A stretch of DNA of 64,000 nucleotides from Candidatus Gallimonas faecium (GCA_904378075.1 CAJFHA010000004.1:18113-82112), one strand, 5' to 3'. Counted from the stretch's first letter, positions 8,198-54,887 are shown. Numbers and translations: made by a program. The notes: generated by a model from the sequence alone, not told the origin.

Positions 8198-8206
8198 GTT
8201 TTGGTT

Positions 8207-9237: not shown

Positions 9238-9251
9238 CTACGGTACAAAAA

Positions 9252-9284: not shown

Positions 9285-9293
9285 CCGATATGA

Positions 9294-20790: not shown

Positions 20791-22288
20791 CTTCCACTTC
20801 CTCCCGCTTGAAGTTGCAGAACTTGCCGGGCTGTTTGGAAGTGCCCATCATCACCGCCCAACCGAAGCGGTTGACAAGGAGCGTCGCCACGCCGGAGAAC
20901 AGCGTTCCGAGCCCGAGTACGAACGCCGCCGTCTGCAGGCTCGTGAGCGCGATCGCGTACACAAGGAACGCGATGATCGCAACGACGATATGCAGATCGA
21001 ACAGCTTCCAGAAACACTTTTTGTAGCCCGTCTTGACGGAAGAAGTCATCGTCTTGCCGAGCGCGTACTCCTTGCGCGCGTTTTCGAACGCAACGGCGTC
21101 GCTCACGCACAGAAGCACCGATGCAAGCATGAACGCAAGGAAGGTCTCCACGCTCAGATACAGGAACGGGATGGACCAGCCGCACAGGATCATGGCAAAC
21201 AGGAACAGCAGATAGGTATACAGGTGCACGAAGCCCAGGCGATGGTAGCGGATGAAGAAGAACGCCATCATCGCGACGAAGAAAATGCCGAACGCAATGT
21301 AGAGCATCCAGACCGTATTCGAACCGTACAGCGCCGGATGGAAGTATGCATCGCTGGGCGTGAACGTCAGATCGTCCGACGTTCCGGAGATCGCGCTGTT
21401 GAGCAGCACCGCAACGGTATTCGCCGTCTCCGGCGTATAGCTGCCGCTGATGTAGAGAGTGTTCTGGTCGTACACTTCGTTAACGGAGAGCTGCAGAACG
21501 GACGTATCGCCGACATAGAAGAAGAGGGTGACCGCCGTCTCCGCCGCGCCCGACGTCGCGCTTGCCAGCGCGGACTGTCCGGCTTCCGTGAACAGGAACT
21601 CAATGTAGCCCGTGCTTCCGGACGTACGCGCGCGCACCGACTGCACATAGTCGGCGACCGTCTCATCCGGACGAACGGTGAACAGATCGGTCGCGGACGC
21701 CTCGTCCGAACCGTATTTGATGTTCAGCTCTCCCGTATAGGAGAAGAAATTGATCGCGGTGTATTCGCCGTCCATCATGGCGGGCAGGAACACGCGGATC
21801 GCGTAATCCCCCACCGATTCGACGCGCGCCCCGTCCACGCGAAGGAGGGCATAGCGCTGCGTCACGGTTTCCAGAGCCGACGCAAACGCCGCTTTGAACC
21901 CTTCCGTCATCACGCCGTTGTCGTCGCAGGCAACGCCCTTTTCCAGGTAGACGGAACCGTTTTCGTCGGGATAGCGGACGTAATCCGCCGCATAATCCTC
22001 CCGCTCCTCGTCGCTCATGTCGCGGGTATCGTCTTCGTATTCCTTGGCGGTGATGACGCCTTCGGGATAGTACACGGCGGAATAGCCGCCGCCGAGATAC
22101 GCGCCCGTATCGGCGTTCGCGCCGTACGCAAGCCCGAGATCGGCGTCCTTCTCCATCATACGCATGACGGAGCTGAACGCATGCAGATTGTCCGTTCCGT
22201 AGGAAAACGAAACGGTACAGATAAAGCACAAAACGGCGATCAACAGGGTATAGATCACCAGCAGGACCACCGATTTTTTCTTGCCCAT
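20783..22288 (-). CDS. secD: SecD-like protein-export membrane protein (divergent)
   Basis: 501 aa. The TM block LLCVSDAVAFENARKEY parallels the SecD GMAVDANVLIFERIKEE motif. 8-nt overlap with secF. Confidence 0.6.
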   Translation of the reverse strand: MGKKKSVVLLVIYTLLIAVLCFICTVSFSYGTDNLHAFSSVMRMMEKDADLGLAYGANADTGAYLGGGYSAVYYPEGVITAKEYEDDTRDMSDEEREDYAADYVRYPDENGSVYLEKGVACDDNGVMTEGFKAAFASALETVTQRYALLRVDGARVESVGDYAIRVFLPAMMDGEYTAINFFSYTGELNIKYGSDEASATDLFTVRPDETVADYVQSVRARTSGSTGYIEFLFTEAGQSALASATSGAAETAVTLFFYVGDTSVLQLSVNEVYDQNTLYISGSYTPETANTVAVLLNSAISGTSDDLTFTPSDAYFHPALYGSNTVWMLYIAFGIFFVAMMAFFFIRYHRLGFVHLYTYLLFLFAMILCGWSIPFLYLSVETFLAFMLASVLLCVSDAVAFENARKEYALGKTMTSSVKTGYKKCFWKLFDLHIVVAIIAFLVYAIALTSLQTAAFVLGLGTLFSGVATLLVNRFGWAVMMGTSKQPGKFCNFKREEVEDE

Positions 22289-22327
22289 TGCCTCCTCCTG
22301 TAACGCGCCGCTTTTCGTATTTTTTGC

Positions 22328-23635
22328 CTAATTTTCGCGCGACTTGCGCTCTGCAAGCACGTGCATCGCGCACTCGATGCGCTTTTTCATCATCGCGCAG
22401 GTCATTTCATACGGCTTGTTGATGTCGCCGTTATAGTGATAGTTGTTCGCGCTGCAGCCGCCCGAACAGATGAATTTGGCAAAACAGTCGCCGCACTTTT
22501 CGCGCGTGAACAGGCTGGACGACGCAAACAAGCTGCGGATCTGCGGATCGATCACGCCCTCATACACACTGCCCATGCGCCATTTTTTGTCGCCTGCAAA
22601 CTGATGGCAGGGATAGAGATCGCCGTTCGGCACGACGGAGAGGTACTCATTCCCCGCGCCGCACGCCGAAACGCGCTTCTGAAGGCAGGGACCGCCTTCG
22701 AGATCGATATGGAAGTGGAAGAAGGAGAAGCCCTTCCCCTCCGCTTCGCGGCGGATATACTCGTCGCACAGCTTTTCATATTCCGCCTCGATCACGGGCA
22801 GGTGTTCCTCTCTGATCTGCAGTTCGGGAATGTCCGTGACGACGGGCTCGACCGAAAGGGAATCGAAGCCCTGATCGGCAAGGAAAAGCACGTCCTTGGA
22901 AAAATCGAGGTTCTTTGCCGTAAACGTGCCGCGCACATAGTAGTGCTTGTCCCCGCGGATCTTCACGAAGTTTCTGATCTTATCGATGACCGCGTCGAAG
23001 CTCCCCTTTCCGGAGACCGTCTTCCGCACGGCGTCGTGCACTTCCTTTCTGCCGTCGAGGGAGAGGACGACGTTTTCCATCTCCGCATTGAGAAATTCCA
23101 CTGCATCGTCGTTTAAAAGCAGACCGTTGGTCGTAGTGGTAAACAGGAACCGCTTGCCGCGCTTTGCCGCTTCTTCCTTGGCATAGGCGACCGTCTGTTT
23201 GATGACGTCCAGATTCATGAGCGGTTCGCCGCCGAAGAAGTCCACTTCGAGCACCTTGCGCGCGCCGCTGTTCGCAATGAGGAAGTCGATCGCCTTTTTT
23301 GCCGTTTCCGGGCTCATCATCTCGCGCGCGGCATGATAGGCGCCCTCGTCCGCAAAACAGTACTTGCAGCGAAGGTTGCAGTCGTGGCAGATGTGAATGC
23401 AGAGCGCCTTGAGCTCCTGCGATTTGACGGGCGCTACGGTCGTCTCCTCCGCATACAGCAGCCCTGCGTTTTTAAGCCCCTCGATGTCCGCGAGCGTCTC
23501 TTTCAGCTCCTCGTCGGTAAATTCGACGCTCTCCCCCGCAAGGTGACGCGCGGTCTTTTCGTCGCACTCATGGAGCGCGCCGCTGCCCGTGTCGTAGACG
23601 TAGTGATGTCCGTGGTAATGAAAAACGTGTACCAT
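22328..23635 (-). CDS. scfB: Radical SAM/SPASM thioether-forming SCIFF peptide maturase
   Basis: Track ORF 22328..23668; start MVHVFHYHGHHYVYDTGSGALH at 23635. CHDCNLRCKYC rSAM cluster and a C-terminal Cys-rich SPASM region (CGAGNEYL...CGDCFAKFICSGGC). Immediately downstream of the SCIFF peptide. Confidence 0.88.
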   Translation of the reverse strand: MVHVFHYHGHHYVYDTGSGALHECDEKTARHLAGESVEFTDEELKETLADIEGLKNAGLLYAEETTVAPVKSQELKALCIHICHDCNLRCKYCFADEGAYHAAREMMSPETAKKAIDFLIANSGARKVLEVDFFGGEPLMNLDVIKQTVAYAKEEAAKRGKRFLFTTTTNGLLLNDDAVEFLNAEMENVVLSLDGRKEVHDAVRKTVSGKGSFDAVIDKIRNFVKIRGDKHYYVRGTFTAKNLDFSKDVLFLADQGFDSLSVEPVVTDIPELQIREEHLPVIEAEYEKLCDEYIRREAEGKGFSFFHFHIDLEGGPCLQKRVSACGAGNEYLSVVPNGDLYPCHQFAGDKKWRMGSVYEGVIDPQIRSLFASSSLFTREKCGDCFAKFICSGGCSANNYHYNGDINKPYEMTCAMMKKRIECAMHVLAERKSREN

Positions 23636-23716
23636 ATTCGTGTGCGGATAACATCCGAAAAAGCGCAAAACAAGGAGCAGCGCAAAGGCGCCGCTCCCCG
23701 TCTTTTGGCGGTCGTG

Positions 23717-23869
23717 TTATTTTCTCTCGATCTTCTCTTCTCTCGTGACGCGCTCGCAGGACTGATTGCCAACGGTGCAGCTCGTCTTGCAAGCGGACTG
23801 GCAGGTGCTTCTGCATTCGCCGCAGCCCGTCACTTTCTTTGCCTGAGGTTTTGCGATCGTACGGATCAT
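23717..23869 (-). CDS. scfA: SCIFF (six-cysteines-in-forty-five) ribosomal peptide precursor
   Basis: Below the track size cut-off. My translation: MIRTIAKPQAKKVTGCGECRSTCQSACKTSCTVGNQSCERVTREEKIERK (50 aa, six Cys, GCGEC..C...C...C motif). GGAGAA RBS. Confidence 0.88.
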   Translation of the reverse strand: MIRTIAKPQAKKVTGCGECRSTCQSACKTSCTVGNQSCERVTREEKIERK

Positions 23870-23898
23870 AACATTTTCTCCTGTCTTCGTTTTTTTCC

Positions 23899-23927
23899 AT
23901 TATACAACGGCGCGGCGAAATTTGCAA
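23899..23927 (-). promoter_or_regulatory. SCIFF promoter, TTGCAA-17 nt-TATAAT
   Basis: Minus strand reads TTGCAAATTTCGCCGCGCCGTTGTATAAT, about 30 nt upstream of the scfA ATG. Confidence 0.6.
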
Positions 23928-23955
23928 GTGTTTTTTCGGATCCGCGCAAATCTTT

Positions 23956-24330
23956 TCATTCCTTGCGCAGTTTCACGCCCGCAAGCGCGCCGAGCCCGCC
24001 CAGCGCGCCGCACACGAGCAGTTCGACAAGAAAGAGCGCATTGAGGCGGAAGCCCCCGCCGATGGCGGCAAACAGCAGCATGGCGAGCAGCGTTGCCGCG
24101 ACGCCCGCAGCGATCCCCTTGAAGAACGCGCGCCCGTGATGGACGAACAGGAGCGGGAATAAAAACGCGCCCGCGCATTTGATCACCCAATTGACGGCAA
24201 GCACCGCGCCGTCCGCGGGCGCATACGCGCGCACAAAGACGGCGGCAAGCGCCGTCGCCACCAGATAGAACAGCGTACAAAAGAGTGCGGCAAGCGCGAC
24301 TTCCTTGACGACTCTGCCGAAACCTTCCAT
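23956..24330 (-). CDS. Small four-helix membrane protein
   Basis: 124 aa, almost entirely hydrophobic helices with Gly-rich turns. No family assigned with certainty. Confidence 0.65.
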   Translation of the reverse strand: MEGFGRVVKEVALAALFCTLFYLVATALAAVFVRAYAPADGAVLAVNWVIKCAGAFLFPLLFVHHGRAFFKGIAAGVAATLLAMLLFAAIGGGFRLNALFLVELLVCGALGGLGALAGVKLRKE

Positions 24331-24370
24331 AAAAACCCCCGCATCCGTGATATTCTACGGTATGCGGGGG
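24331..24370 (-). terminator. Intrinsic terminator abutting the next start codon
   Basis: Minus strand reads CCCCCGCAT...ATGCGGGGG followed by TTTTT and then the ATG at 24330. Confidence 0.6.
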
Positions 24371-24415
24371 CTTGTTCCGTTATGACGTTTCAGAGCAGGG
24401 TGCCGTAAAGATCTT

Positions 24416-24863
24416 TTAAGAATTCTCTTCGCTTTCGTGCCAGATTCTTATTCGGTTTCCGTTATTATAAAATATTGAAATATCTGCGACAACGACTGTC
24501 CATAGAACATCATTATATCCTGTAAATTTATCCGTCATCATAATTGCAACGCAATCGCCGTATGTGCCATGGTATCGGATAATTTTGAAATCGTCCGCAG
24601 ACGCTTCCGCATTCTTATATTCTTGGCGGTAATTATATGCCGACGTCTCACAGATCTTCCAAGACGTTTCCTCGCTCAATTCCTGCGGATCTTTCGGTAT
24701 GGGAACATAATCTTCCCCCATGATCGCTTCATTTCCACGCGTCATAGGCTCCCTGCAAAGAATAAAATTCTCCGAACGGAGGACTGCCTTTACAGCCCGC
24801 AAGTCCGACGCACATTCCTGCCGCCATGATCCCCGCAAGAATCACACAACCTGCTCTCTTCAT
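24416..24863 (-). pseudogene. Lipoprotein gene interrupted by a 1-nt frameshift
   Basis: An ATG at 24863 behind AAAGGAGG gives MKRAGCVILAGIMAAGMCVGLAGC (lipobox) ...FYSLQGAYDAWK and a stop at 24729. The body continues in another frame as track ORF 24416..24838 (...NEAIMGEDYVPIPKD...). The junction is in GGAAATGAAG. Confidence 0.55.
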
Positions 24864-25007
24864 CTTTTCACCTCCTTTCGGATCATCAAAAATACAAAAC
24901 GGCACTGCCGATTTTGAATTGGGGTGCCGTTCGTCCTGTTCATCATTCTCGCCTCCGACCGATGCGTTATATCTGCCCTTTCCTCTTTTTGTTGTAAATC
25001 TGTAAAT

Positions 25008-25036
25008 ATACTATCATAAATATCGTCCCTTGTCAA
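25008..25036 (-). promoter_or_regulatory. Sigma-A-type promoter, TTGACA-17 nt-TAGTAT with TG extension
   Basis: Minus strand reads TTGACAAGGGACGATATTTATGATAGTAT, upstream of the lipoprotein gene. Confidence 0.5.
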
Positions 25037-25065
25037 CCCCCGTTTTAAACGACTGCCCGCGCATT

Positions 25066-25100
25066 AAAAACGCCCGACGCGTAAAAAACGCGTCGGGCGT
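25066..25100 (-). terminator. Intrinsic terminator of degV
   Basis: Minus strand reads ACGCCCGACGCG-TTTTTTA-CGCGTCGGGCGT followed by TTTTTAAT. Confidence 0.8.
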
Positions 25101-25112
25101 GAATCCTTCTGA

Positions 25113-25991
25113 TTATTTTTCCAACGGAACGGGGCGCTTATCTCCCACAAAGATGACGCCCAGCGTTCCGGGCCCGCAGTGCGATCCGATGACGGGACCG
25201 ACGATCTGCCGCACCACTTTGGCGTTCGGGCGCTTTTCCAGAATGAGATCGCGGAGCTTATCGCCCTCTTCGGCACAGTCTGCATCCACAACGTAGACGG
25301 GGCAGCTTTCGTCGGTGAGTTCCTGCGCAACTTTGTCGGCAAGCGTGCGGATCGCCTTCTTTCTGCCCGCGATCTTGGAGAGCACGCAGAGCCCGCCGTC
25401 CGCCCCCACCGAGAGCATGGGCTTGAGCCCCAGAACGGTGCCTGCGACCGCTGCAAGCCCCGAGCATCTGCCGCCGCGCTTCAGGTGCATGAGGTCGTCT
25501 ACGACAAAATAGACGCAGACGCGGTCGGTAAATGCGGCAAGGAAATCGAGGATCTCCCGATCGGACGCGCCCTTTTGCCTGAGCAGCGCCGCCTGTTCCG
25601 CCTGAATGCCCGCGCCCAGAGAGATGCTGTTGGTATTAAACACCGTGCATTTACGGTCGGGATAGGTCTCTTTCAGCTCGCGCAGGGCAAGATCGAGCGA
25701 TTGGAACGTACCGCTCAGCTTGTGCGAAAAGCTGATGTACAGAATGTCTTCGCCGCGCTCGAAATAGGGCGTCAGAAACTTTTTGTAGTCCTCCGGATTG
25801 AGTGCCTGCGTCTTGGGGATGTTCCCCGCGCGCACCAGGTCGTAAAATTTACGGAAATCCGTCGCCTTGCCGAGATCGTAAAAATATTCCTGCCCGTCGA
25901 TATAGTAGGGCATGGAGATATAGTCGAGCCCGAGCTCCTCGGCGCGCGTGTACCACAGCTCGCCGTTGGAATCAAAGATCATTGTACTCAT
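25113..25991 (-). CDS. degV: DegV-family fatty-acid-binding protein
   Basis: 292 aa with typical DegV features (SFSHKLSGTFQS, VVDDLMHLKRGGR, GSHCGPGTLGV). Confidence 0.88.
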   Translation of the reverse strand: MSTMIFDSNGELWYTRAEELGLDYISMPYYIDGQEYFYDLGKATDFRKFYDLVRAGNIPKTQALNPEDYKKFLTPYFERGEDILYISFSHKLSGTFQSLDLALRELKETYPDRKCTVFNTNSISLGAGIQAEQAALLRQKGASDREILDFLAAFTDRVCVYFVVDDLMHLKRGGRCSGLAAVAGTVLGLKPMLSVGADGGLCVLSKIAGRKKAIRTLADKVAQELTDESCPVYVVDADCAEEGDKLRDLILEKRPNAKVVRQIVGPVIGSHCGPGTLGVIFVGDKRPVPLEK

Positions 25992-26120
25992 GGAATTTTC
26001 CTCGTTCTGTCATTGATTTTTGTGACTTTCGTCGTCTTTATTTTACTCCCGCGCGCGCCGTTTGTCAACAAGATATAACATAATATTTACTTTATCAACC
26101 ATCGGACGCTGTTCCAAATG

Positions 26121-43684: not shown

Positions 43685-43727
43685 AAAGGGCAGCCCTGAA
43701 ATTTGTTTCAGGGCTGCCCTTTTTTTG
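43685..43727. terminator. Bidirectional intrinsic terminator closing the fibre operon
   Basis: AAGGGCAGCCCTGAAA-TTTG-TTTCAGGGCTGCCCTT with flanking A and T runs. Confidence 0.8.
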
Positions 43728-43771: not shown

Positions 43772-44305
43772 TTACTCGGAAACCAATGTATTATCGATCA
43801 GCGTACCATTTCCGCCATACGCAGGCGTTGTGCTGCCATCAAAAATTCCGCCGTTCACAATGACCGTATCTGAACTCTGCGCCGTGTAGATATGAGGCTG
43901 ATTCCCGCTCCGGGTAAATGTACCGCTTTCAATCGTACAAGTGCTATTGCATTCCAAATAAACACAATACCGATTCTGCGCCGTGATCGTCACATTTCGA
44001 AGAGTAGCCGTCGAATTTCCTACAACCTGTACCCCTCCCCTCAACGTAACATTGTCGATCAATACATTTTTGGCACCCGATGTGACATAAAGCGGATAGG
44101 CACTATTTTCATAACTGTCTTGCTGGACGATACCGTTCTTCAGCGTGATCCCGTTCGCAGCCAATCCAAAGACGCTCCCATAAACACTGATTCCGCTTCC
44201 GATCGGTTCAACCGTTACGGTATGTCCGCCCAAATCGATCGTTACATCCGGAACAGTGATATAAGTATCAACCTTACTTTTTGAATGAAAGCTGATCATC
44301 GACAC
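43772..44305 (-). CDS. Signal-less right-handed beta-helix module, probably the detached C-terminus of the upstream giant protein
   Basis: 177 aa: VTIDLGGHTVTV, NVLIDNVTLRGG, ATLRNVTITAQN, TCTIESGTFT, TVIVNGGIFDG turns. No signal peptide or SD. GTG/ATG starts (44305/44299) lie inside the upstream gene, in the +1 frame. Confidence 0.6.
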   Translation of the reverse strand: MSMISFHSKSKVDTYITVPDVTIDLGGHTVTVEPIGSGISVYGSVFGLAANGITLKNGIVQQDSYENSAYPLYVTSGAKNVLIDNVTLRGGVQVVGNSTATLRNVTITAQNRYCVYLECNSTCTIESGTFTRSGNQPHIYTAQSSDTVIVNGGIFDGSTTPAYGGNGTLIDNTLVSE

Positions 44306-47300
44306 GCGCGATCTTCTGCTCTGCGTCCTCTGTGTTCGTATAATTTACACCCACAAAAAAGACTTGGGAATCGTTGTTATACGCAAACAGATCTTTGCAA
44401 GCGCCGTTGACCGTGATCCGATCTTCCGTTGTCGTGGAAATATTGTAGACGATCAGCGCGCCGCGCTTAAGCGTGCTGCCTTCGGGGACGGGAATTTCAG
44501 CAGGCTTATCATTGCTCATCCATACCTGCAGATTACCGACGATGCCCGCGGCAAAGGTCTCCCCCTGAATGCGTTCCGCTTCGTTCAGACAGTTTTGTAC
44601 AAGACCTGCATCATACAGCGTACCGACGATCCCGCCGCCGTCGTTCCCGCCGTCGATCGTGCCGCTGTTGCTGCACCCGATGACTTGGATCGGCGCCTTT
44701 GTCTGATAATCGGCGACCGCGCCGCTATAACGGATCCACCCGACGATCCCGCCCGTTCCGTACGCCGCCGTGTTTGTATTGACGATATTCGCCGTGTTCA
44801 CACAGTCTGTAACGGCGCCGTAATTCTGCTGTTCGCCGACGATCCCGCCGATCGACGCGCCATTGCCCGCCACCGCTCCGCTGTTGGTACAATCCGAAAC
44901 GTATGCAGAGCTGAGTCCGACGATTCCGCCCGCCCCCATACAGGCAGCCGTGACCGTCCCCGTATTCGTGCAGTTCGTGATATGCATTGCCTGCGATTCA
45001 TCCGCATAAATGCCGGTATAGTACGCCGCACCGACGATTCCGCCGACATTGCCGCTGGTTACGCTTGTTGCCGTAATCGACGCATGGTTGTTACAATTTT
45101 CGATCGTACCCGAGACGGTCATTCTGCCGACGATCCCGCCGTTCCCGCGCACCGCCGTCACGCTTCCGCTTTCTACCGTAACGCCGGACACCGTCGCGCC
45201 GTTGATCATCAGTCCCGCGACAGCCCCCACGCATTCGCCATCCGTAACGTTGACAGACACATTTGCAAGCGTCAGATCTTTCACGACGCCGCCGTTCAGT
45301 ACGCCGATCAAGCCAAAAGCATTGTCATCCCCGTATGCGCCGCTGAATGTCAGATTGGAAACGGTCTTTCCGTTTCCGTCGAATGTACCGCTGAACGACT
45401 TTCCGCCTTCTGCAAGCCCGCTGCCGCTGCGCATTCCCTGCCCGATGGGCGTCCAGGAAATGCCGGACAGATTGATGTCGGCTTCCAGAACAATATCGCA
45501 GACAATGTTCCCGCTCACCTTACCGAGATCGGCAAGCGCTGCCGCCGTCCAGACGTGCAGGACATCGTTCCGCCCGACGTCGCCAAGATCGCCCGTAAAA
45601 TCAGACTTCTCGTCTCCGCCGAGGAAATGAACCCCTTCGTACCAGTCGCATTCCGCGTCTTCCCTGAACAAACGATTGATGGAATAGACGTCCGTTCCGA
45701 TCGCAAAAATTTCATACCCGCTTTCATTTTCGATCGTCACATCCTGCGCGATTCTGCCGTCTTCCAACGCCCAATTGGAATTCGTGCTCTTTGTTGCCCA
45801 GTCATAGTAGGATACTGGGAATTCTCCCTTACATACAAGCTGCAAGCCTGCTCCGAGCGTTACGTTCAGCGCGTTTGTCGCGTCGACTTCCGCGTAGTCT
45901 CCTTGACTGGGGTTGACTCCGTACCCGTGAGAATGCAGCGTGACCGCAGAACCGGAAGGATTGATCCCGTTTGCAGGACGCGTACCGAGTTCTGCTTCCC
46001 CGTTGCATTCGATCGTTCCGCCGATCAGATTCAGCGTTCCCATCTTGGCGTCGATCCCCGCATACAGGCCCTTCACATAGGCGTTCCCTTCCATGGTAAG
46101 CGTTGCGGCATTGGGAACATAGATCCCCGTTCCGTCATGGCTGATCACGGAAGCATTCCCGGAAAGTTCGATCGTCATGGTGCCGTTCGTATTGTTGCCG
46201 TCCAGCCCGTAGAGGTATGCTTCGATTCCGGCATCATCCGTCATGACAACGCGCGCACCCGTTCCGAGGACCGGTCCGGACGGAACGACCATCTGCGCCG
46301 AATCCTTCATCAGGACGACCGATTTCGTGCGGACGCGCATGGCGTCTGCGCCCTCCTGATCCTGTTCCCCGTCGTTCAGAATATAATTCGTGTTCCCTGC
46401 AAAGGTGACTTCCGCCGCCTGCTCGGCAAGCATCCCGCAAATCTGATAGGACGCCGCATTGGAAAAGTCAATGGAGATCTCGCAGTCCGTAAACGTGACC
46501 TGAGCACCGTTGAAGTGCATCGCCTGCGACTGCGGCGTCTCATCATTTACGGCATCGTTGTCATAGTCGATATCGAAAGAAGTATTTTCAAATACGGCAC
46601 CCCCTCCCGAAACAACGACTGCGCTCATGGCGGCAGCATCGGCAGAGGCAACAAGCCCGTTTGCCCGGACGGACGAATCTGTCATGATAAGGGTGGCGCC
46701 CTGAACATTGAGCGCCGTTTTACCGGTCGCCTGTACAGCCACGTTTTCCAATGCGACCTGTCCCTGCGAACGCGTACGTGCCGCGAGGCCGTTCTGTGCC
46801 CCGACCGTCACGCCGTTTTCAATGGTCAGATTCCGCAGGGTGACATTCTGAGGAAGAGCGAGCGGCGCATCGTCGGACGTGGTAAGCAGCGCATCCCCGT
46901 ATCCTTCTATCACGACCGATTTCCCGGAAAGCGCATCGAAAGCATTGGCATCCAATTCATGCACGCCGTCCCCTGCAGAAAGAACGACTTCCGCTTCTTC
47001 GCTCTCCGCAGCCGCTTCGATCGCCTCGGTCAGCGTTCCGTAATCATTTCCGTCAAAATTGGCATTCCCCGTGAAGGCATTCGCCTGAACGGCGCGCACG
47101 ACAAGGGTGATCTCGCTGTTGACGCTCGACGCAGCGCCCCATGCAAGACCGATATGGAAGGAAAGTTCCGCGATCTGCCCCTGCTCTGTTCCCGCCGTCA
47201 CCCAGCCGCCGACGCCTTCGGTCTGCGTCAGGAAATAAGAAGAACCCGTGCCGTTCATGACGCCGCCGCCGAAGGTATAGGCGGAAGCGTTGCCGTCCAG

Positions 47301-47702
47301 CGAGAGATAGGCGACATACTTCATGGCGACCGTACTCGCGTTCTCAACGGTGAGCGTGAAATCGGCGGTCGTGCCCTGCGCAAGCGTCATGGTGATCTGC
47401 TCCCCGTTGACCGCCGCGCTGCCGTAGCCGTTTTCAAGCGTGATCGCGTTCTCCGAAGCGTTGCCGTCGCCCTGCGCGTTATCCGCAACGGACGTTGCGT
47501 CCGAATCCGCTTCCCCGCGGTAAGACATGGAATCGAGCGTCAGTGCGGACGAAATGCTGATCTCGCCGCTATGCACGTTGAAAGAATATTCCTGCGAGCT
47601 TGTAAACGCCGCAACCGTTGCGCCGACAATGAGCGCGCCGCAGCACCCGATGGTGAGCGCGGACATGACGATCGCTTTCGTTTTCCCCGTCTTCCCTTTC
47701 AT
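44274..47702 (-). CDS. Giant secreted protein B: TasA/camelysin-like N-domain plus beta-helix and GLUG-like repeats
   Basis: Track ORF 44274..47816; start MKGKTGKTKAIVMSALTIGCCGALIVGATVAAFTSSQEY at 47702 behind GAGGAG. The N-domain ends at VRAVQANAFTG. The C-terminal third has about seven G-G-I-V-G repeats. Confidence 0.8.
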   Translation of the reverse strand: MKGKTGKTKAIVMSALTIGCCGALIVGATVAAFTSSQEYSFNVHSGEISISSALTLDSMSYRGEADSDATSVADNAQGDGNASENAITLENGYGSAAVNGEQITMTLAQGTTADFTLTVENASTVAMKYVAYLSLDGNASAYTFGGGVMNGTGSSYFLTQTEGVGGWVTAGTEQGQIAELSFHIGLAWGAASSVNSEITLVVRAVQANAFTGNANFDGNDYGTLTEAIEAAAESEEAEVVLSAGDGVHELDANAFDALSGKSVVIEGYGDALLTTSDDAPLALPQNVTLRNLTIENGVTVGAQNGLAARTRSQGQVALENVAVQATGKTALNVQGATLIMTDSSVRANGLVASADAAAMSAVVVSGGGAVFENTSFDIDYDNDAVNDETPQSQAMHFNGAQVTFTDCEISIDFSNAASYQICGMLAEQAAEVTFAGNTNYILNDGEQDQEGADAMRVRTKSVVLMKDSAQMVVPSGPVLGTGARVVMTDDAGIEAYLYGLDGNNTNGTMTIELSGNASVISHDGTGIYVPNAATLTMEGNAYVKGLYAGIDAKMGTLNLIGGTIECNGEAELGTRPANGINPSGSAVTLHSHGYGVNPSQGDYAEVDATNALNVTLGAGLQLVCKGEFPVSYYDWATKSTNSNWALEDGRIAQDVTIENESGYEIFAIGTDVYSINRLFREDAECDWYEGVHFLGGDEKSDFTGDLGDVGRNDVLHVWTAAALADLGKVSGNIVCDIVLEADINLSGISWTPIGQGMRSGSGLAEGGKSFSGTFDGNGKTVSNLTFSGAYGDDNAFGLIGVLNGGVVKDLTLANVSVNVTDGECVGAVAGLMINGATVSGVTVESGSVTAVRGNGGIVGRMTVSGTIENCNNHASITATSVTSGNVGGIVGAAYYTGIYADESQAMHITNCTNTGTVTAACMGAGGIVGLSSAYVSDCTNSGAVAGNGASIGGIVGEQQNYGAVTDCVNTANIVNTNTAAYGTGGIVGWIRYSGAVADYQTKAPIQVIGCSNSGTIDGGNDGGGIVGTLYDAGLVQNCLNEAERIQGETFAAGIVGNLQVWMSNDKPAEIPVPEGSTLKRGALIVYNISTTTEDRITVNGACKDLFAYNNDSQVFFVGVNYTNTEDAEQKIARVDDQLSFKK

Positions 47703-47926
47703 ATAGCTCTTCTCCTCACTTGAATTTTGCTTTGGGCGGAACAGAGCGCTCCTGCGCGCCCCTTCCCGATCTGCCCGTCCGCGGCTTTCCGCGGACGGGA
47801 TTTTGTTTTGAACCATGCTCCCCGATCGGGCTCCCGCAAAAAGACAAAGTATTTCTGCGGGACAGCATCGGGTTTCACGCCCCGATTGGGGGCGTCGCCT
47901 TCGGCTCCTTTGAATGGCGCAAAGCC

Positions 47927-50900
47927 TTACGCCTGTTCTTCGGAAGCGGGAACGACCTGCCAGCCGCCTTCGACTTCAGACAGTTCGAATCCTTCCGCAA
48001 GGTACGCCTTGACAAAATCGGAAGTAAACGTGCCGCCTGCGATCTCAATGGCGGGAGCATCCGCCGCAACGGTGAATCTGAGCGTAACGTCAAACGTACC
48101 CGTGCATCCGGCTTCGACCTTCCAGACCGTCTTGGACTGCCAGCCTTCCCACATATTCTGAGCGCCGTATTCGATCTTTCCGGAAACTTTGCCCGTGAAA
48201 TCGGACGCAAAGACCACGGAAACACCGTCTTCATAAGTCGTGCTCATTCCATACCAAAGGTCAAAAGCAACCCCTGCCGGATTCGTACTGCTTGCGATGA
48301 TCTGCGTGTTGCCCTTGATCGTCGTCGTGCCGCAGTTGCTGGAAACAACATACTGCATATTCGGATCATCGGATGCATCCAGCACCATGTCCTGCAACGT
48401 CAGATCATTGTACTTCTGAATGAGGATATATCCCTCCGTAGCCTCGCTCTTGACCGAACCGTTCATCATGACAACGGTGGAGCCCTTCAGAAGCTGGAAC
48501 AAATTGGTCTCCGTACCCGCAGAACCGACGGTGGGATCGACGCCAACAAACGTCTTGCCCGCGAAATCGATGACGATGTTCTGTCCCGCAGAAACCTTAA
48601 CGCCGCTGCCATAGACGGTATCCTCTGCGGCAATGAACGTGATCGTCTTCTGCGTGTTATCGGTGGGAACGTCGGCTACCGCATATCCGAGCGAGGAATA
48701 TGCCATGCTGTCCATCATAACGACCATGCCGGCAGCCGCCGCTTCCTCGGGCGTACCCACATAGTAGGTGCCGTCAACTTCCCATGCGACATAGCCTTCA
48801 CCAAGGAAGCTCTCGGCGGGATTTTCCGTTGTGCTGTTGGCGGGATTGTAGTTAACAAACGCGCCGCCCGTAACATTAAACGTCGATTGACTGTTGTCAA
48901 CTTTATTTAAAATCCACGTTCTATTATCATACGATCCGATTGCAGAGAAAGTACCGCCATGGATATTCGCCGTTGCCTTGTTGTCGATTTGAACCGCCGT
49001 CAGCCCACACACATATGTGCCACCCGTGATAGTGAGCGTAGGACTGGGATAAGCGGGTTGCGTAGAACCGAGTCTGAACAGGTAGCCGAGTTCAGAATCT
49101 TCGCTCTGTATCATGCTGCCGTTGCCAATCGTAAATACAACATTGTTGTAAATATCGATCAAGCCGTCCTGATTGAAATACATGGTATAGCCGTTCAAAT
49201 CAATGTTGACCGTGCGCTTCGGCATAAGCGGTCCCTGAAAGCGCAAGGTATCGTTGACCGTGATGTCGTTGCCGAGCGTAAGATCCAAATTGGAAGTAAT
49301 GGTGAGGGGCTGCATCAGAAGCACTTCAATGCCGGCTTTCGTAAATTCACTGAGCTGTGCAAGCGTATATGCGTATGCAACCGTATCTTTGAACGTGCCG
49401 CCCGTGATCTTATAGGTCACTTTCTCGGCAATCGAATAATCGCCGACTGTTCGGACAAACCCGACAAGGTCGCCCTCGAACGTACCGCCCGTGATCGTCG
49501 TCAGACCGTCGCCGATCATTTCCTGATTGTAACCACTCAAAACAGCCATGGGACTGCCGACAAATTCACCGCCGGAAATTGTAAGCACATCCCAATTCAA
49601 AACGGATGCCTGCGCAGCGTTTTCGAATCTGCCGCCCAGAATGGTCAGCTCGCACATACCGTCGTTCTTAACAACATTCAGACCGCCGCGGAACGTACCG
49701 CCCGTGATCGTAAGAGACGCATTTCCACTCAAATCCTGGGGACCGGAATTGTCGATCAGGCTGCTATAGCCGTCTTTCATAACGATCAGTCCGTCGTTCA
49801 GCGTTGCCGTGCCATGGTTGTAGAAGGTATACCAGCTGTTGCCGTTGCCGTTGCCGCCATCAGGATCGTAAGTACCGGCAGCCTTACTTCTGGTCAACGT
49901 ACCGCCGTTCATAGTAAACACGCCGCTTGGATTGTTGTAGACAGCCGCCGTTCCATGCGCCAAAGCATCGACCACGGTGCCCTCTTCGATCGTAAGCGTA
50001 CCGTTGTTGATAACGGTATGATCGACTCCCGCTTTACCGCCGTCCGACGTGAGCGCCGTACCGGAAATCGTTGCCTCTGCGCCCGCACCTACTGTCAGCG
50101 CCGTGCCGTTTTGATTGACGACCTTGCTGTTGGAAAGCGTAAGCGTGCCGCCATTGAGGGTGATTGCACCGTTTTCCACCATGGAATTGACGATGGTGAC
50201 GTTTGCGTTGGTCGCCGTGACGGAGCCCTTGAAGGTGACGCCGTCGAACATTGCCGTGCCGCCCTCGGCCTCGGTCGCCGCGTTGGAAAACGCCATGAGC
50301 GACATGGTGGAGATGCCTGCGATCTGATCGTCGGAGATGGTCACGCTGCCGTTGATGGTCGCGTCCTCGATGCTCGCGTTGGAGGTAGCCACGACGTTGC
50401 CTTCGACGGTGACGTCTTTGAGCGTGACGTTTGCGGGGATGTAAAGCGTGCCGTTATCCGCAGCCTCGATGGTGGTGAGCGATTCGCCCGCACCGACAAC
50501 GGCAAGCGGCTTGTCGCCGAGCTGCGCAGCTTCTTCCTGCGTCAGCCAGGTCGCGTTCACGTTTCTGCCGAGGGAGACCGTCTCGTTATTGGCCGCCTGC
50601 ACCATGGCTTCGGCAAGTGTTTCGTACGTCGTATCGCCCACGGAAATGGTGCCCGTGTAAGCGTTCGCCTGCAGCGCTTCCAGAACGACCGTCATGGAAA
50701 CGGACTGCGGCTCGGTCACGCCCTCGCCTTCGGCGGGATCGAACACTTCAAGCGCGCTCCAGGGAAGGCTGATCTCGAACGCGAGCGTCGCGTCCTCTTC
50801 GGGGATCGCCTGCCCCGCTTCCACCGTCTGCCAGTCGAGCAGGGAGACTTCGTCGTCCTCCAGCGACTTGTTCACGCCGTCCACGGAGAACTGAAGTGCC

Positions 50901-51310
50901 TGACGAAGTTCGCTGCCGCCCTCGCTTACAAGAACGGTGACGGAATACTTCATGTCCACCGCGCTTGCGTTGGTGACGGCAAGTTCGAATGCCGCGCCGT
51001 CGCCGAGGGACATGTTGTTGATCGTGATATTGCTGCCGTCCGTAATGGCAACCGTGCCGCCCTGCGGAAGGGTTGCCGTGTTGTCGATGACCGTCGCTTC
51101 TTCGCGTTCGTTCGTGGACTGCCCCTGCGACCACGCCTGCGTCAGAGTAAGCTCGCCCTGCACGTCGATCTTGCCCGTGTTGACGCCGATCTGGTACTCG
51201 CGTCTCGAGGTGAACAGCGCGAACGTCGCGCCCAAGATCACCGCAAGGCACATGACCACAACGAGCACGGAAAGAAGGATAGCTCTGCTTTTCGTCTGTT
51301 TGCTTTGCAT
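47927..51310 (-). CDS. Giant secreted protein A: TasA/camelysin-like N-domain plus ~900-aa beta-helix passenger
   Basis: 1127 aa: MQSKQTKSRAILLSVLVVVMCLAVILGATFALFTSRREY...LEALQANAYTG. This is followed by repeated NGGTLT / ITGGTF / NIDLNGYT turns. GAGGAG RBS. Confidence 0.8.
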   Translation of the reverse strand: MQSKQTKSRAILLSVLVVVMCLAVILGATFALFTSRREYQIGVNTGKIDVQGELTLTQAWSQGQSTNEREEATVIDNTATLPQGGTVAITDGSNITINNMSLGDGAAFELAVTNASAVDMKYSVTVLVSEGGSELRQALQFSVDGVNKSLEDDEVSLLDWQTVEAGQAIPEEDATLAFEISLPWSALEVFDPAEGEGVTEPQSVSMTVVLEALQANAYTGTISVGDTTYETLAEAMVQAANNETVSLGRNVNATWLTQEEAAQLGDKPLAVVGAGESLTTIEAADNGTLYIPANVTLKDVTVEGNVVATSNASIEDATINGSVTISDDQIAGISTMSLMAFSNAATEAEGGTAMFDGVTFKGSVTATNANVTIVNSMVENGAITLNGGTLTLSNSKVVNQNGTALTVGAGAEATISGTALTSDGGKAGVDHTVINNGTLTIEEGTVVDALAHGTAAVYNNPSGVFTMNGGTLTRSKAAGTYDPDGGNGNGNSWYTFYNHGTATLNDGLIVMKDGYSSLIDNSGPQDLSGNASLTITGGTFRGGLNVVKNDGMCELTILGGRFENAAQASVLNWDVLTISGGEFVGSPMAVLSGYNQEMIGDGLTTITGGTFEGDLVGFVRTVGDYSIAEKVTYKITGGTFKDTVAYAYTLAQLSEFTKAGIEVLLMQPLTITSNLDLTLGNDITVNDTLRFQGPLMPKRTVNIDLNGYTMYFNQDGLIDIYNNVVFTIGNGSMIQSEDSELGYLFRLGSTQPAYPSPTLTITGGTYVCGLTAVQIDNKATANIHGGTFSAIGSYDNRTWILNKVDNSQSTFNVTGGAFVNYNPANSTTENPAESFLGEGYVAWEVDGTYYVGTPEEAAAAGMVVMMDSMAYSSLGYAVADVPTDNTQKTITFIAAEDTVYGSGVKVSAGQNIVIDFAGKTFVGVDPTVGSAGTETNLFQLLKGSTVVMMNGSVKSEATEGYILIQKYNDLTLQDMVLDASDDPNMQYVVSSNCGTTTIKGNTQIIASSTNPAGVAFDLWYGMSTTYEDGVSVVFASDFTGKVSGKIEYGAQNMWEGWQSKTVWKVEAGCTGTFDVTLRFTVAADAPAIEIAGGTFTSDFVKAYLAEGFELSEVEGGWQVVPASEEQA

Positions 51311-51429: not shown

Positions 51430-52086
51430 TCAGTTCAGTCCGAGCGCCTCGTTCAGATCGGCGTCGGATGCGTTCGCCTGACCCGCATAGATCGTGAACT
51501 CGATGGAAGCGTTCGTGATGAAGTCCTCCGCCGCGCCGTCGTCCCCGAAGGTCTGTTCGGCGTCTTTATCGAGCTCCACGGTAATCTCGAGCGTGACGGA
51601 ACTTCCGGGCGCGATCTCCGTTTCCGCCCAGGTCCCGAACGAAAATGCGCCGCCGCCTTCCGCCGTGATCGCATAGTTCAAGCTGTCTTCCGCGCCTTCC
51701 GCGCCCGTGACGCTTGGCGTGTAGTCCACGCGGAACCGCGCGGCGGATTTACCCGTGTTGGTGATGGTGAGCGTGAACTCCGCCTTATCCCCCGGGACCA
51801 TCTGCGACAGCGAAATGCTGCCGTTCTGCCCGTCGATGGAGGCGCTGCCGCCCGTTGCGAAATTCAGGCTGCCCGTGGGCTGTGCGTCCGTGCTCTCGGG
51901 CGTCAGACTGTACAGCGTCAGGCTGTCCGTGTCAAACTCGGCGGCAATGTCCACGCTGCCCGTTGTGACGGTCACTTCGCGCTGTTTCTGCGTGCCGAAG
52001 AGCGCAAACGTGGCGCCGACGATGATCGCCGCGCACAGCAGGACGGTGAGTCCCGCCGTCAGCAAAGCCGTTCTCTTGCTTTTCAT
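51430..52086 (-). CDS. TasA/camelysin-like secreted fibre-subunit candidate (218 aa)
   Basis: N-terminus MKSKRTALLTAGLTVLLCAAIIVGATFALFGTQKQREVTVTTGSVDI, parallel to TasA GGGTWAAFND...ASGTLDL. Beta-rich body. Confidence 0.75.
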   Translation of the reverse strand: MKSKRTALLTAGLTVLLCAAIIVGATFALFGTQKQREVTVTTGSVDIAAEFDTDSLTLYSLTPESTDAQPTGSLNFATGGSASIDGQNGSISLSQMVPGDKAEFTLTITNTGKSAARFRVDYTPSVTGAEGAEDSLNYAITAEGGGAFSFGTWAETEIAPGSSVTLEITVELDKDAEQTFGDDGAAEDFITNASIEFTIYAGQANASDADLNEALGLN

Positions 52087-52132: not shown

Positions 52133-52795
52133 TCAGACCTTCTGCGTCGCCGTTACGGTGACGTTGAAAGAAAGGTCCGCGTTCATGATGGTCGCGCCCG
52201 TTCCGTCGTCGAGCACGTCCGATTCCAGAGGAAGTTCGACCTTCAGCAAAAAGGTCCGCGTTTCGTTTGCCGCGGAGACCGAACCGAGCGGGAGCGCGCC
52301 GCGCTCTACCATGCCCGCAAGCGTGGTGCCGGGATCGGTGAGCACGTTGCCCTCCGCGTCCGTGACCGTAACGAGCAGTTTGCCGGCAAGACGCTGTTCG
52401 GGAGAATTGTCCGCAGGCGTTTCGGCGTAAAAGAATGCGACCGAATAGTCGAACGCCACGCTGCCGCGGTTTTCGATCTCGAGCGTCGCTTCCTGCCAGA
52501 CGCCGGGAACGCTGTTGCCGCCGAACGTAAAGACGGTATCGTCCGGATCGTCCGTCTGCGCTTCGGTGAGGTCAACGCGCGCCGTATCGGTGGCGACCGC
52601 CTGCAGGACGCCGTTCTCATCCGCCGTGCGTCCCGTCAGATTGGTGCGCGCCAATCCGATCTCCAGCGTGCCCGCCTGCAGGTAATTGACGACCGTCGCC
52701 GAATCGGAAAACAGCGCGAAGGACGCCGTGACCAGAATGACGGCGCTCATCAGCGCGACGAGAACGGACATGACGATGGCTTTGGATTTGTTCAT
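52133..52795 (-). CDS. TasA/camelysin-like secreted fibre-subunit candidate (220 aa)
   Basis: N-terminus MNKSKAIVMSVLVALMSAVILVTASFALFSDSATVVNYLQAGTLEIGL, the closest match in the window to the TasA signal/N-terminal motif. Confidence 0.78.
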   Translation of the reverse strand: MNKSKAIVMSVLVALMSAVILVTASFALFSDSATVVNYLQAGTLEIGLARTNLTGRTADENGVLQAVATDTARVDLTEAQTDDPDDTVFTFGGNSVPGVWQEATLEIENRGSVAFDYSVAFFYAETPADNSPEQRLAGKLLVTVTDAEGNVLTDPGTTLAGMVERGALPLGSVSAANETRTFLLKVELPLESDVLDDGTGATIMNADLSFNVTVTATQKV

Positions 52796-52810: not shown

Positions 52811-53683
52811 TTATTCTTCGGCGGGCGGCGTCGCGGGCTGCGCGCTCTCTTCTTCCGCAGGCTGCTGCGCAGGCGGTTCTGCTTCCGATGCCTGCTGCTG
52901 CGCCGCGGCGGCTTCCTCCGCCGCCTTCTTTTCGGCTTCGCGCTTGAGCCTGCGCTGTTCGCGGCGGGCGGCTTTCTTTTCCTCCTCGCGGCGGGCGCGC
53001 TCCTCTGCGAAGTCGCTGTATGTAATATCGATGATGTTCTTGATATGGTCGATGGTCTCCGCCGATTCCACGCGCACGTCGATGGGCTTTTCCTTGATGT
53101 TCAGCCCCTCTTTGTCCGTGTAGGCGATGAAATCGTTGTTCTGCACGGTCAGGCGCGCCGTGATGCGGCCGCGGCGCAGCAGGATGCGGACGAGCAGCTT
53201 CTTTCCGTAATAGACGCTCGCGCTCCTGTCGTTGATGACTTTCTTTGCGCCCTCTTTGGCTTCGGCATACGCGACGATCTCGTCCACGCAACTCTTTTCG
53301 ATGGGCGAGAGCTGTTCGTACGCTTCGGGATAGGGCACCGTCTCGTTGCGGCGCAGAAGGACCATGCCCTCGGTATCGACGGGCTCCTCCTCCGGCTCTT
53401 CTTCAACCTCCGGCTCCTCAACGGGCGCGGGCGGTTCCTCGGTCGGTGCGGGCTGCGGTGCGGGCTCTTCGACCGGCTGCGGCACGGTACGGGAAGCGGC
53501 TTCGGCGATCGCCGCCTTATCCCCGACGCGCACAAGCACATACGCCGTATCGTCCACGACGACGACTCTGCCCGCATCCCCCTCTTTCTTCGCGCGCGCA
53601 AGCGAGACGATCAGCCAGACGACGAGCGCCAGAGCGACGACGCAAATGAGTACGACGCACACGATGAACAATGCTTGAGTCAT
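52811..53683 (-). CDS. Membrane-anchored protein of unknown function (TM, P/E-rich spacer, globular core, K/E/R-rich then A/Q/P/E-rich tail)
   Basis: 290 aa. ATGA overlap with the sipW stop. Composition is unlike an antisense shadow. Confidence 0.7.
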   Translation of the reverse strand: MTQALFIVCVVLICVVALALVVWLIVSLARAKKEGDAGRVVVVDDTAYVLVRVGDKAAIAEAASRTVPQPVEEPAPQPAPTEEPPAPVEEPEVEEEPEEEPVDTEGMVLLRRNETVPYPEAYEQLSPIEKSCVDEIVAYAEAKEGAKKVINDRSASVYYGKKLLVRILLRRGRITARLTVQNNDFIAYTDKEGLNIKEKPIDVRVESAETIDHIKNIIDITYSDFAEERARREEEKKAARREQRRLKREAEKKAAEEAAAAQQQASEAEPPAQQPAEEESAQPATPPAEE

Positions 53684-54429
53684 TTTTCTTCACCTCTCTT
53701 TAATTCCTCCAGCTCCGCGCGCAGGCGCTCGATCTCCCGCTCGCGGGCATCCGATTCCTCTTGCTGCTTCCGATGCCTGTCCGCGCGCACGATGCGCGCG
53801 ATATTGAAAATTTCGTAAATCAGAATGAGTGCCGCGGGCACGATGAGGCACACCACGATGCCCGTCGTCGAACACAGGAAATACAGGAATGCGCCCAGCC
53901 CGTAATTGCTCCAGGTCACTTTGCCGATGACGTCGTCCTCGCCGATCGGCTGCGCGTCGGGGGCATCGTTGGCGTCTCCCTGCGTGGTGAACGTAAAGCC
54001 CGTTTCCGTCCCGTTTATTTCAACAATGCGGTGGGTATTGACGACGGGATCGTCCTGCGTCCCCGTGCGCGTCCAGTCATTGAACGTGATGATGTCGCCC
54101 ACCTGCAGCGATGCGAAAAATTCCTGCCGCTGCGCCTCGTCCTCGGGCGCGACCTGAATGCCCACAATGGAGCGGGTGCGGAGGGAATCCTCCCGATCGC
54201 CCTCCATGGAGCCCGTGAGCACGATGCGGTACTGCATGCCGCCGACGGTCAGCGTCTCGCCCTGCGCGCGGTAGCAGATCGCAACGATGAGCGCGGCGAC
54301 CGCCGCGACCAGCACGACGGCGATCACGATGCCCGAAACGACGGACAAGACGCGCGCCGCGCCGCTCTTTTTTCTGCCTGCGGCAGGTTCGTCCCCCGCC
54401 GGCATGGGAGCCATCACGGGCGCCGTCAT
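53680..54429 (-). CDS. sipW: Signal peptidase I, archaeal/ER type (SipW-like)
   Basis: Track ORF 53680..54468. The ATG at 54429 overlaps the upstream stop (ATGA). LTGSMEG (Ser), NTHRIVEI (His) and QGDANDAPD boxes. Second TM plus a charged coiled-coil tail. Confidence 0.82.
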   Translation of the reverse strand: MTAPVMAPMPAGDEPAAGRKKSGAARVLSVVSGIVIAVVLVAAVAALIVAICYRAQGETLTVGGMQYRIVLTGSMEGDREDSLRTRSIVGIQVAPEDEAQRQEFFASLQVGDIITFNDWTRTGTQDDPVVNTHRIVEINGTETGFTFTTQGDANDAPDAQPIGEDDVIGKVTWSNYGLGAFLYFLCSTTGIVVCLIVPAALILIYEIFNIARIVRADRHRKQQEESDAREREIERLRAELEELKRGEEK

Positions 54430-54887
54430 ACAGCGCCCTCCAGCGCATACTGCGCCGTAACGGTGCATGCCGCGCCCTGCGCCTCGTTGCCGACGCCGGC
54501 GTCCATGCGATAGGTCACCGTAAAGGCAAATTCACCCTCGACGTCCGCGCGGTATTCCTTGCCCGCGCAGTCCGCGAGCCCGCCATCATACAGCACCTCG
54601 TCTCCCGCCGCAATGCGGACGGAGAGGAAGCGGGCGAGCGCGCCGTCGTCCGCCGTCAGCGAAACGACAAGCGAAGCAGGGGAAGCGGACTCCCCCCGAT
54701 AGGAACAGGCGCGCTCCTGCCCGGGCGCAAGGCCGTCGATGACGACCTCCTCGCGGAAGGTATCCCCTTCGCCCTCGAGCGCCAGCCCGTTGTTCTGATT
54801 GGTCATGAGATATGCTGCGCCCAGTCCCGTGCAGACGAGCACGACGGCAAGAGCGGCAATGAGTACGATCAGCGCAGACTTTTTCAT
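54426..54887 (-). CDS. Small secreted beta-rich protein, first gene of the operon (positional analogue of TapA)
   Basis: 153 aa: MKKSALIVLIAALAVVLVCTGLGAAYLMTNQ signal-like N-terminus. GGGAG RBS. Confidence 0.7.
   Translation of the reverse strand: MKKSALIVLIAALAVVLVCTGLGAAYLMTNQNNGLALEGEGDTFREEVVIDGLAPGQERACSYRGESASPASLVVSLTADDGALARFLSVRIAAGDEVLYDGGLADCAGKEYRADVEGEFAFTVTYRMDAGVGNEAQGAACTVTAQYALEGAV

Follow-up and report, generated by a model that had tools for sequence, protein, structure and literature searches.

How are giant secreted proteins kept at the cell surface when they carry no anchor that can be recognised? The question is raised by a locus of Candidatus Gallimonas faecium, contained in a 64,000-nucleotide stretch of DNA (GCA_904378075.1 CAJFHA010000004.1:18113-82112) that we refer to as the window, counting positions from its first letter. 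An operon on its minus strand encodes, in this order, the signal peptidase SipW, three proteins of 290, 220 and 218 amino acids (aa), and two giant proteins of 1127 and 1142 aa, termed A and B. A preliminary description, made from the sequence alone, had proposed that A and B each fuse a fibre-subunit domain to a long beta-helix passenger. Our analysis inclines us, with modest confidence, to read the locus as encoding extracellular fibres of the TasA/BsaA type that depend on SipW, to which A and B would be attached by donor-strand exchange.

Results

The N-terminal modules of A and B match a stand-alone small protein

The open reading frame (ORF) of A (47927-51310, minus strand) was confirmed, and that of B (44274-47702, minus strand) starts at an ATG downstream of a GAGGAG ribosome-binding site. 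A and B are 32% identical over 322 residues (E 6e-24), a similarity confined to their N-terminal ~320 residues. The N-domain of A also aligns with the 218-aa protein (51430..52086, minus strand) at 30% identity over 223 residues (E 3e-18), spanning its full length, and the mature 218-aa protein scores 67 bits against a profile built from the N-domains of fusion proteins only. Its full-length relatives (n = 27, 99-100% query coverage) are all 199-229 aa long. Judged by these comparisons, the N-modules of A and B, each a ~185-residue beta-sandwich, are homologous to the 218-aa protein over its whole length; this stand-alone protein is the candidate shaft subunit.

The 220-aa protein (52133..52795, minus strand) belongs elsewhere. 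In its mature form it scores 11 bits against the fusion-domain profile, equal to TasA of Bacillus subtilis, and BLAST against the N-domain aligned its signal peptide and nothing more; it thus represents a second, distinct class of small subunit (class II, the 218-aa protein being class I). It scores above the cut-off of the cognate_SipW model TIGR04088 (23 bits, cut-off 19), and its N-terminus, LFSDSATVVNYLQAGTLEI, is the nearest to that of TasA (AGTLEI against SGTLDL). Both classes are kept, in the same order, in most related loci. The preliminary description had assigned one and the same N-domain to A, B and both small proteins, which holds for the 218-aa protein and fails for the 220-aa protein; the motifs that it quoted are all present, including LEALQANAYTG at the end of the module in A and VRAVQANAFTG in B.

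In A, the predicted signal peptide (residues 1-31; 51218..51310, minus strand) is followed by a mature N-terminal extension of residues 32-50, LFTSRREYQIGVNTGKIDV (51161..51217), and by a beta-sandwich body of residues 51-222 (50645..51160), placed by AlphaFold2 and profile search. AlphaFold2 models mature A(32-222) as an all-beta sandwich (predicted local distance difference test score, pLDDT, 85; predicted template modelling score, pTM, 0.81), and the model of the full-length protein agrees (sandwich 50-214). The signal peptide and subunit-like module of B together occupy residues 1-214 (47061..47702, minus strand). The module closes with the motif E-A-x-Q-x-N (A residues 211-217, window ~50660-50680), in which Gln and Asn are invariant in 72 family members; TasA has EATQWNG.

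A conserved segment behind the predicted cleavage site is a candidate donor strand

The signal peptide of A is its sole hydrophobic segment (residues 6-36), with a modelled helix at 9-30. All four secreted proteins have a cleavage motif like that of TasA (GTWA↓AF, the arrow marking the cut): the predicted sites are ATFA↓LF in A, ATVA↓AF in B, and ATFA↓LF, ATVA↓AF or ASFA↓LF across the set. TasA, the 220-aa and 218-aa proteins, A and B all have small-x-Ala ahead of the cleavage site and Phe at P2′ behind it; in each, Gly occupies mature position 15, and positions +17 and +19 are hydrophobic. Phe at P2′ is what makes TasA SipW-dependent (PMC10269814).

The best-conserved stretch of A lies directly behind the predicted cut, where, among 22 orthologues (mean column identity 42%), 15 of the 21 residues show little or no variation. 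Mature residues 1-13 have a pLDDT below 50 in both AlphaFold2 monomer models, that of the module and that of the full-length protein. High conservation of a segment predicted to be disordered fits a strand that acts between molecules. In the TasA fibre the donor strand comprises residues 28-38 and is followed by a hinge at 39-47 (PMC9674648); the N-terminal segment of A has its landmarks at the spacing found in TasA and is, from its sequence, a candidate donor strand.

The passengers are beta-helical or repetitive and carry no detectable anchor

The passenger of A (residues 223-1127; 47927..50644, minus strand) consists, in the full-length AlphaFold2 model (pLDDT 75.5), of an N-cap helix and two short-strand solenoids at about 243-830 and 887-1090. 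Foldseek matched it to the autotransporter passengers pertactin (1dab and 2iou, probability ~1.0) and antigen 43 (Ag43; 7koh), to the beta-helix of a GH87 alpha-1,3-glucanase (E 2e-5) and to a PL6 alginate lyase. Pfam found no beta-helix in A, and a PDB sequence search returned nothing for either passenger; the AlphaFold2 model and the Foldseek matches are what confirm the A passenger as a right-handed beta-helix. The passenger of B (residues 215-1142; 44274..47060, minus strand) has GLUG-type repeats at about 740-1060 (Pfam GLUG, E 5e-5) and weak matches to Peptidase_M26_N and to ZmpB/ZmpD N-regions. A metalloprotease reading of the M26-like and 'camelysin' matches was ruled out, as HEXXH occurs in none of the proteins.

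The beta-helix-type passengers of the preliminary description were thus borne out in A by the solenoid model and the structural matches. The segment that it took for a paralogous linker is instead a conserved cap with which the passenger begins. Among relatives exported by Sec, the motif 'AKIGETEYATLAEAVAAA' directly follows an ordinary signal peptide and begins the mature chain, and a short cap helix stands at that site in the A model.

Two stretches of A, residues 390-650 and 730-1108, share 31-45% identity with portions of proteins bearing SLH, dockerin or Chlam_PMP plus autotransporter domains. This recurrence marks the passenger segments as a promiscuous surface module that is normally tethered. 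In A and B themselves, Pfam and NCBIfam at E<=0.1 gave no SLH, choline-binding or LysM domain and no sortase signal, A having no match of any kind, and a motif and hydropathy scan gave neither LPXTG nor a C-terminal hydrophobic tail, the signal peptide being the one hydrophobic segment in each protein. The autotransporter barrel PF03797 was not found by Pfam in A or B and was seen only in distant passenger relatives (P0105-P0108). A longer, 1337-aa form of B, described below, likewise ends without a wall-binding module. The earlier statement that A and B lack a recognisable wall anchor therefore survived the profile search, and the sole candidate tether in either protein is the N-terminal subunit-like module. 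Three family relatives have LPXTG-like strings close to their C-terminus; these were dismissed, as no hydrophobic tail follows them.

B is a truncated allele and passenger segments are exchanged

Fourteen relatives of B at 98-99% identity are 1325-1383 aa long, mostly 1337, and have 195 more residues that run into a Beta_helix segment. In the window, an out-of-frame ORF at 43772..44305 (minus strand; Pfam Beta_helix, E 4e-8) corresponds to residues ~1186-1337 in relatives of 1337 aa, and the junction (43772-44305 / 44274-44340) lacks about 83 nt. By this alignment the B encoded here is a truncated allele, its last ~150 residues left as a remnant of the ancestral C-terminal beta-helix segment. 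The exact 1142-aa protein is found on 49 contigs of independent assemblies, so the allele is real and both alleles circulate in the population. The span of 44274-51310 originally given to the pair contains two ORFs that do exist; it has to be extended, since B is truncated and its segment continues in the ORF at 43772-44305, so that the locus ends near 43772.

Three relatives of B and A (P0134, P0138 and P0020) have the same N-module at 57-100% identity, joined to passenger segments that are replaced or rearranged; P0138 retains B residues 1-250 and 737-895 around a different middle part. A shared N-module with differing passenger segments suggests cassette exchange, or recombinational swapping. 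Most likely the passengers serve as adhesins or as modules that bind or cleave glycans, and they would be exchanged among strains.

The module and its operon recur in gut Clostridia

Loci related to this operon were sought in one genome per species, using a pattern taken from the closer N-domain alignment, as the diverse alignment lacked conserved stretches. The scan covers 25 loci, from uncultured Clostridia, Christensenellaceae, Candidatus Gallimonas, Alloclostridium, Borkfalkia, Oscillospiraceae and Ruminococcus bicirculans, and their ORFs were searched with the N-module profile together with the SipW and the 290-aa protein of the window. sipW is present in 20 of the 25, and 15 of these 20 encode one or more fusions that reach 374 aa. 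The recurring gene order begins with sipW and a homologue of the 290-aa protein; a class II and then a class I small subunit come next, and between one and three large proteins (374-1625 aa), all opening with the module, stand last. About 15 uncultured gut Clostridia have this arrangement.

The module also occurs without a passenger. In three loci, from three related species (L003 9995-10657, L005 6988-7638 and L008 10642-11319), a stand-alone protein of 216-225 aa has an N-terminal sequence near-identical to the A-type module; it lies 3′ of the two small genes and ahead of the large fusions (L008 has none, its contig ending there). These proteins score E ~1e-51 against the N-domain profile, level with full fusions, and P0148 and P0150 are of the same kind. 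Conversely, L023 (7578-10699, Candidatus Gallimonas intestinalis) combines sipW with the 290-aa homologue and a pair of small subunits, and no fusion follows within the next 10 kb. The module thus occurs both alone and joined to a passenger, and the core system can occur without fusions. A metagenomic bin of Ruminococcus bicirculans (L017-L022) encodes at least five paralogous module-plus-extension proteins of 460-727 aa on separate short contigs; other strains of this species are in culture.

Searching 1.84 billion representative sequences with the module profile returned 2355 cluster representatives at E<=1e-3, 1801 of them at E<=1e-10. In the best 150 of the 2355, the domain always spans about residues 27-215, in proteins whose median length is 595 aa. 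Most of these 150 carry long C-terminal extensions. A Pfam scan of 72 family members found Beta_helix in 13, GLUG in 10, Peptidase_M26_N in four, a pectate-lyase-like adhesive domain in three, and a BspA-type LRR and an SLH domain in one each. The SLH domain stands at the C-terminus of P0157 (a relative of P0026; compare L010 6053-10930), and a protein of this type could tether the fibre to the wall instead of being displayed.

Other features of the operon

The first gene, sipW (53680..54468, minus strand), encodes a SipW-type (archaeal/ER-type) signal peptidase I, which matches the NCBIfam SipW model at E 3e-25 and reaches 67.5 bits against TIGR02228 sigpep_I_arch (NCBIfam; cut-off 51.85). 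The start of the next gene, encoding the 290-aa protein (52811..53683, minus strand), overlaps the sipW stop by 4 nt, and the two are therefore taken to be translationally coupled. The 290-aa protein starts with its single transmembrane helix, continues through an acidic spacer rich in proline into a globular part, and ends in a charged coiled-coil tail in which lysine and glutamate abound. Positive charges after the helix suggest that the bulk of it is probably cytoplasmic. In 14 related loci the gene next to sipW encodes a homologue (E 1e-13 to 1e-128); Pfam and a PDB sequence search found no match. By analogy with TafG, which accompanies the peptidase TafD (PMC12337348), it may be an accessory factor of the peptidase.

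The 224-nt spacer between A and B (47703..47926, minus strand) contains several stable hairpins. Its predicted RNA fold has an energy of -105 kcal/mol (z = -4.5 against shuffled sequences) and includes an 11-bp GC stem at 47774-47799. The spacer between the 218-aa gene and A shows no unusual structure (z = 0.0). No Rfam family was matched anywhere in the window, and the hairpin is not repeated within it. The structure could set the ratio of A to B expression or stabilise the mRNA. The operon ends in a terminator-like hairpin (43685..43722, minus strand) with a 17-bp stem followed by the T-rich tract TTTAAGTTT, and a ZIP transporter gene adjoins it.

GenBank entries HIX09409-HIX09413, from a Firmicutes metagenome-assembled genome, are the exact proteins. 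NCBI names A, B and the 290-aa protein 'hypothetical', the 218-aa protein 'DUF11 domain-containing' and the 220-aa protein (HIX09410.1) 'SipW-dependent-type signal peptide-containing protein'. Elsewhere in the window, G+C content falls to 0.50-0.56 at 8001-10000 and 22001-26000, against a window average of about 0.60.

Discussion

In the fibre reading that we favour, SipW would remove a TasA-type signal peptide from the four secreted proteins (T/S-x-A↓x-F) and so free a conserved N-terminal strand of ~15-20 residues. The small subunits would then assemble a shaft by donor-strand exchange, with the 218-aa class as the main candidate and the 220-aa class as a second, distinct component. A and B would be alternative subunits of the 218-aa class whose C-terminal end runs on into a right-handed beta-helix passenger of ~900 residues. 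They would enter the fibre through the shared module, at its end or interspersed, and the fibre would provide both stalk and anchor for a passenger that has none. For operons that hold several TasA/BsaA paralogues, the formation of heteropolymers has been suggested, and in the model for BsaA the fibre grows at the membrane, the newest subunit being tethered by its uncleaved signal peptide (PMC11580942). With growth of that kind, the first subunit incorporated would be the distal tip. We favour this reading on the grounds of the conserved sipW operon, the stand-alone orthologues of the module, the strand that is conserved yet predicted to be disordered, and the passengers that are anchored elsewhere.

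Several results weigh against it, some of which concern the fold of the module. Foldseek of the N-module against the PDB gave TM-scores of at most 0.37, with carbohydrate-binding modules on top and generic beta-sandwich matches throughout; the archaeal bundling pilin 7ueg ranked 9th (E 5e-3, TM 0.31) and TasA lay outside the top 50. A profile search of PDB sequences placed the TasA fibre and monomer first, yet at E 0.1, through two collinear motifs, GD..F.L.v.N and EA.Q.N. An hhalign comparison of the module profile with TasA (a sequence that agrees with the fragments in the PDB search) reached 37% probability over 34 columns. Against Pfam PF12389 (Peptidase_M73; cut-off 22.5 bits), the 218-aa and 220-aa proteins score 16.5 and 20.0 bits, both below the cut-off, and A and B have no match; 32 of 72 family relatives match at E<=1e-3, and the matches inspected cover profile positions ~3-54 only, a span made up of signal peptide and first strand. 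Scanned against Pfam, the mature N-modules showed scattered similarities below threshold to Ig-like, CARDB and DUF11 families. The module body is therefore weakly TasA-like, and the label derives mainly from the first ~50 residues and the gene context. Assembly raises a further difficulty, as the C-terminal tail of TasA forms an inter-subunit interface in the fibre (PMC9674648) and a 900-residue passenger at the C-terminus of the module could, by analogy, hinder it. Two more points of this kind lead directly to an alternative: the large protein BsaC of the Clostridium perfringens sipW operon is secreted as a monomer (PMC11580942), and among the best 150 family representatives only 7 are stand-alone (<=260 aa), a count in which the fused fraction is biased upward because the profile was built mostly from fusions. 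The module could then serve chiefly as the leader or stalk on which large proteins are secreted.

Under that alternative the N-module would be a SipW-specific export leader or spacer, and A and B would be soluble or loosely associated with the matrix, for example as enzymes that degrade or bind polysaccharides. BsaC offers a precedent for this, the best Foldseek matches of the passenger are enzymes (GH87 alpha-1,3-glucanase and PL6 alginate lyase), long fusions predominate among the best-scoring family members, and neither A nor B has a detectable anchor. A mere leader, however, needs no folded domain of 185 residues that is homologous along its full length to a conserved stand-alone protein of the same operon, nor does it need the most conserved stretch to fall in a segment predicted to be disordered. 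BsaC, moreover, has not been described with a TasA-like domain (PMC11580942), and homologous passengers in other proteins always come with a tether, be it an SLH, dockerin or autotransporter domain. We consider the leader explanation unlikely.

The same module could instead do all of the polymerising itself. A and B each hold a candidate donor strand and a complete acceptor domain, engineered TasA fusions do yield fibres made of fusion subunits (PMC8332661), and some loci have up to three or four fusions and one small subunit (L011 and L016), all of which would suit bottle-brush fibres with a passenger on every subunit and no need of small subunits. Nearly every locus nevertheless retains two small-subunit classes, L023 has small subunits only, so that the fibre core needs no fusions, and a rigid 900-residue beta-helix on each subunit at TasA-like spacing would probably clash with its neighbours. 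This makes self-polymerisation of A and B improbable in our estimate. We give little credence to a design in which the N-terminal helix stays uncleaved as a membrane signal-anchor, the beta-sandwich spans the wall as a spacer and the passenger is displayed from the membrane. That helix is indeed the sole hydrophobic segment in proteins with no other anchor, and BsaA oligomers are reportedly held in the membrane by the uncleaved signal peptide of their newest subunit (PMC11580942). Yet all four proteins keep the small-x-Ala and the Phe at P2′ typical of the SipW substrate TasA (PMC10269814), sipW heads every related operon, and conservation is very high right after the predicted cut.

Returning to fibre attachment by donor-strand exchange, we put forward, more tentatively, a wider form of it. 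Gut Clostridia may possess a widespread modular display system in which a module of the TasA superfamily serves as a universal plug for interchangeable giant beta-helix adhesins or enzymes on a SipW-dependent fibre, with strain-level swapping and truncation of passengers tuning what is bound. The strain mosaicism and the common truncated B allele suggest that the passengers are contact or antigenic determinants in the gut. If the passengers are indeed carried by the fibre, non-covalent strand insertion would join sortase or wall-binding modules and S-layers as a third route by which Gram-positive bacteria present large proteins at their surface. It would also explain how giant beta-helix proteins without anchors are retained by the cell, and would give a function to thousands of proteins of abundant uncultured gut Clostridia. 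For living materials based on TasA fusions, where cargo size, junction and stoichiometry are now settled by trial and error, it would supply natural design rules.

Comparison with known systems

The closest relatives are the TasA/TapA/SipW system of Bacillus subtilis and the BsaA/SipW system of Clostridium perfringens. Like them, the locus has a dedicated SipW-type peptidase in the operon and several paralogous subunits with Phe at P2′, an N-terminal strand of ~15 residues, Gly and hydrophobic positions behind it at equal spacing, and an all-beta sandwich whose last strand ends in E-A-x-Q-x-N. It differs in that the module body is barely alignable to TasA (11 bits; hhalign 37%), in having no TapA homologue and, in its place after sipW, a conserved 290-aa membrane protein, and in its ~900-residue beta-helix passengers, which are found in no characterised TasA, CalY or BsaA protein.

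Two-domain adhesins held by donor-strand exchange are classical, FimH being the familiar case. As in FimH and PapG, the tip adhesins of chaperone-usher pili, a subunit domain is fused here to a functional domain, and the attachment proposed is strand complementation and not covalent linkage to the wall. The order is reversed, with the module N-terminal and the passenger C-terminal; FimH is without a donor strand, whereas A and B keep a candidate one; and the present system is Gram-positive, has no chaperone or usher and carries far larger passengers. As for the passenger itself, pertactin, antigen 43, chlamydial Pmp proteins and the SLH and dockerin proteins of Firmicutes share its right-handed beta-helix; A and B have no beta-barrel translocator, SLH or dockerin domain.

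In archaea, multi-domain tip proteins have been proposed for filaments of the TasA superfamily, namely AbpB of the Pyrobaculum bundling pili (PMC9245690) and TafC of the haloarchaeal Tafi (PMC12337348). In both, a multi-domain minor component has been proposed to join a filament built by donor-strand exchange and to expose its outer domains as an adhesin, and their loci likewise combine a signal peptidase and accessory membrane protein (TafD/TafG) with several pilin paralogues. These archaeal proteins are much smaller than A and B, are not beta-helical and have a role, at the tip or as initiator, that is only predicted, whereas here one to three alternative giant passengers occur per operon, within a family of thousands in gut Clostridia. 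Engineered TasA-cargo fusions, which assemble into fibres (PMC8332661, PMC4982213), resemble A and B in placing the cargo at the C-terminal end of a TasA-type subunit and in their SipW-processed export; they are man-made, and the operon in the window would be their natural counterpart with far larger cargo. With FimH, AbpB (PMC9245690), TafC (PMC12337348) and engineered TasA-cargo fusions (PMC8332661) as precedents, the new display principle suggested in the preliminary description was overstated. In a full-text literature search, natural fusions of TasA-type modules to giant beta-helix passengers were nowhere described, and neither was this large Clostridial family. If the fibre reading holds, A and B would be the natural Gram-positive counterpart of both chaperone-usher tip adhesins and engineered TasA-cargo fibres.

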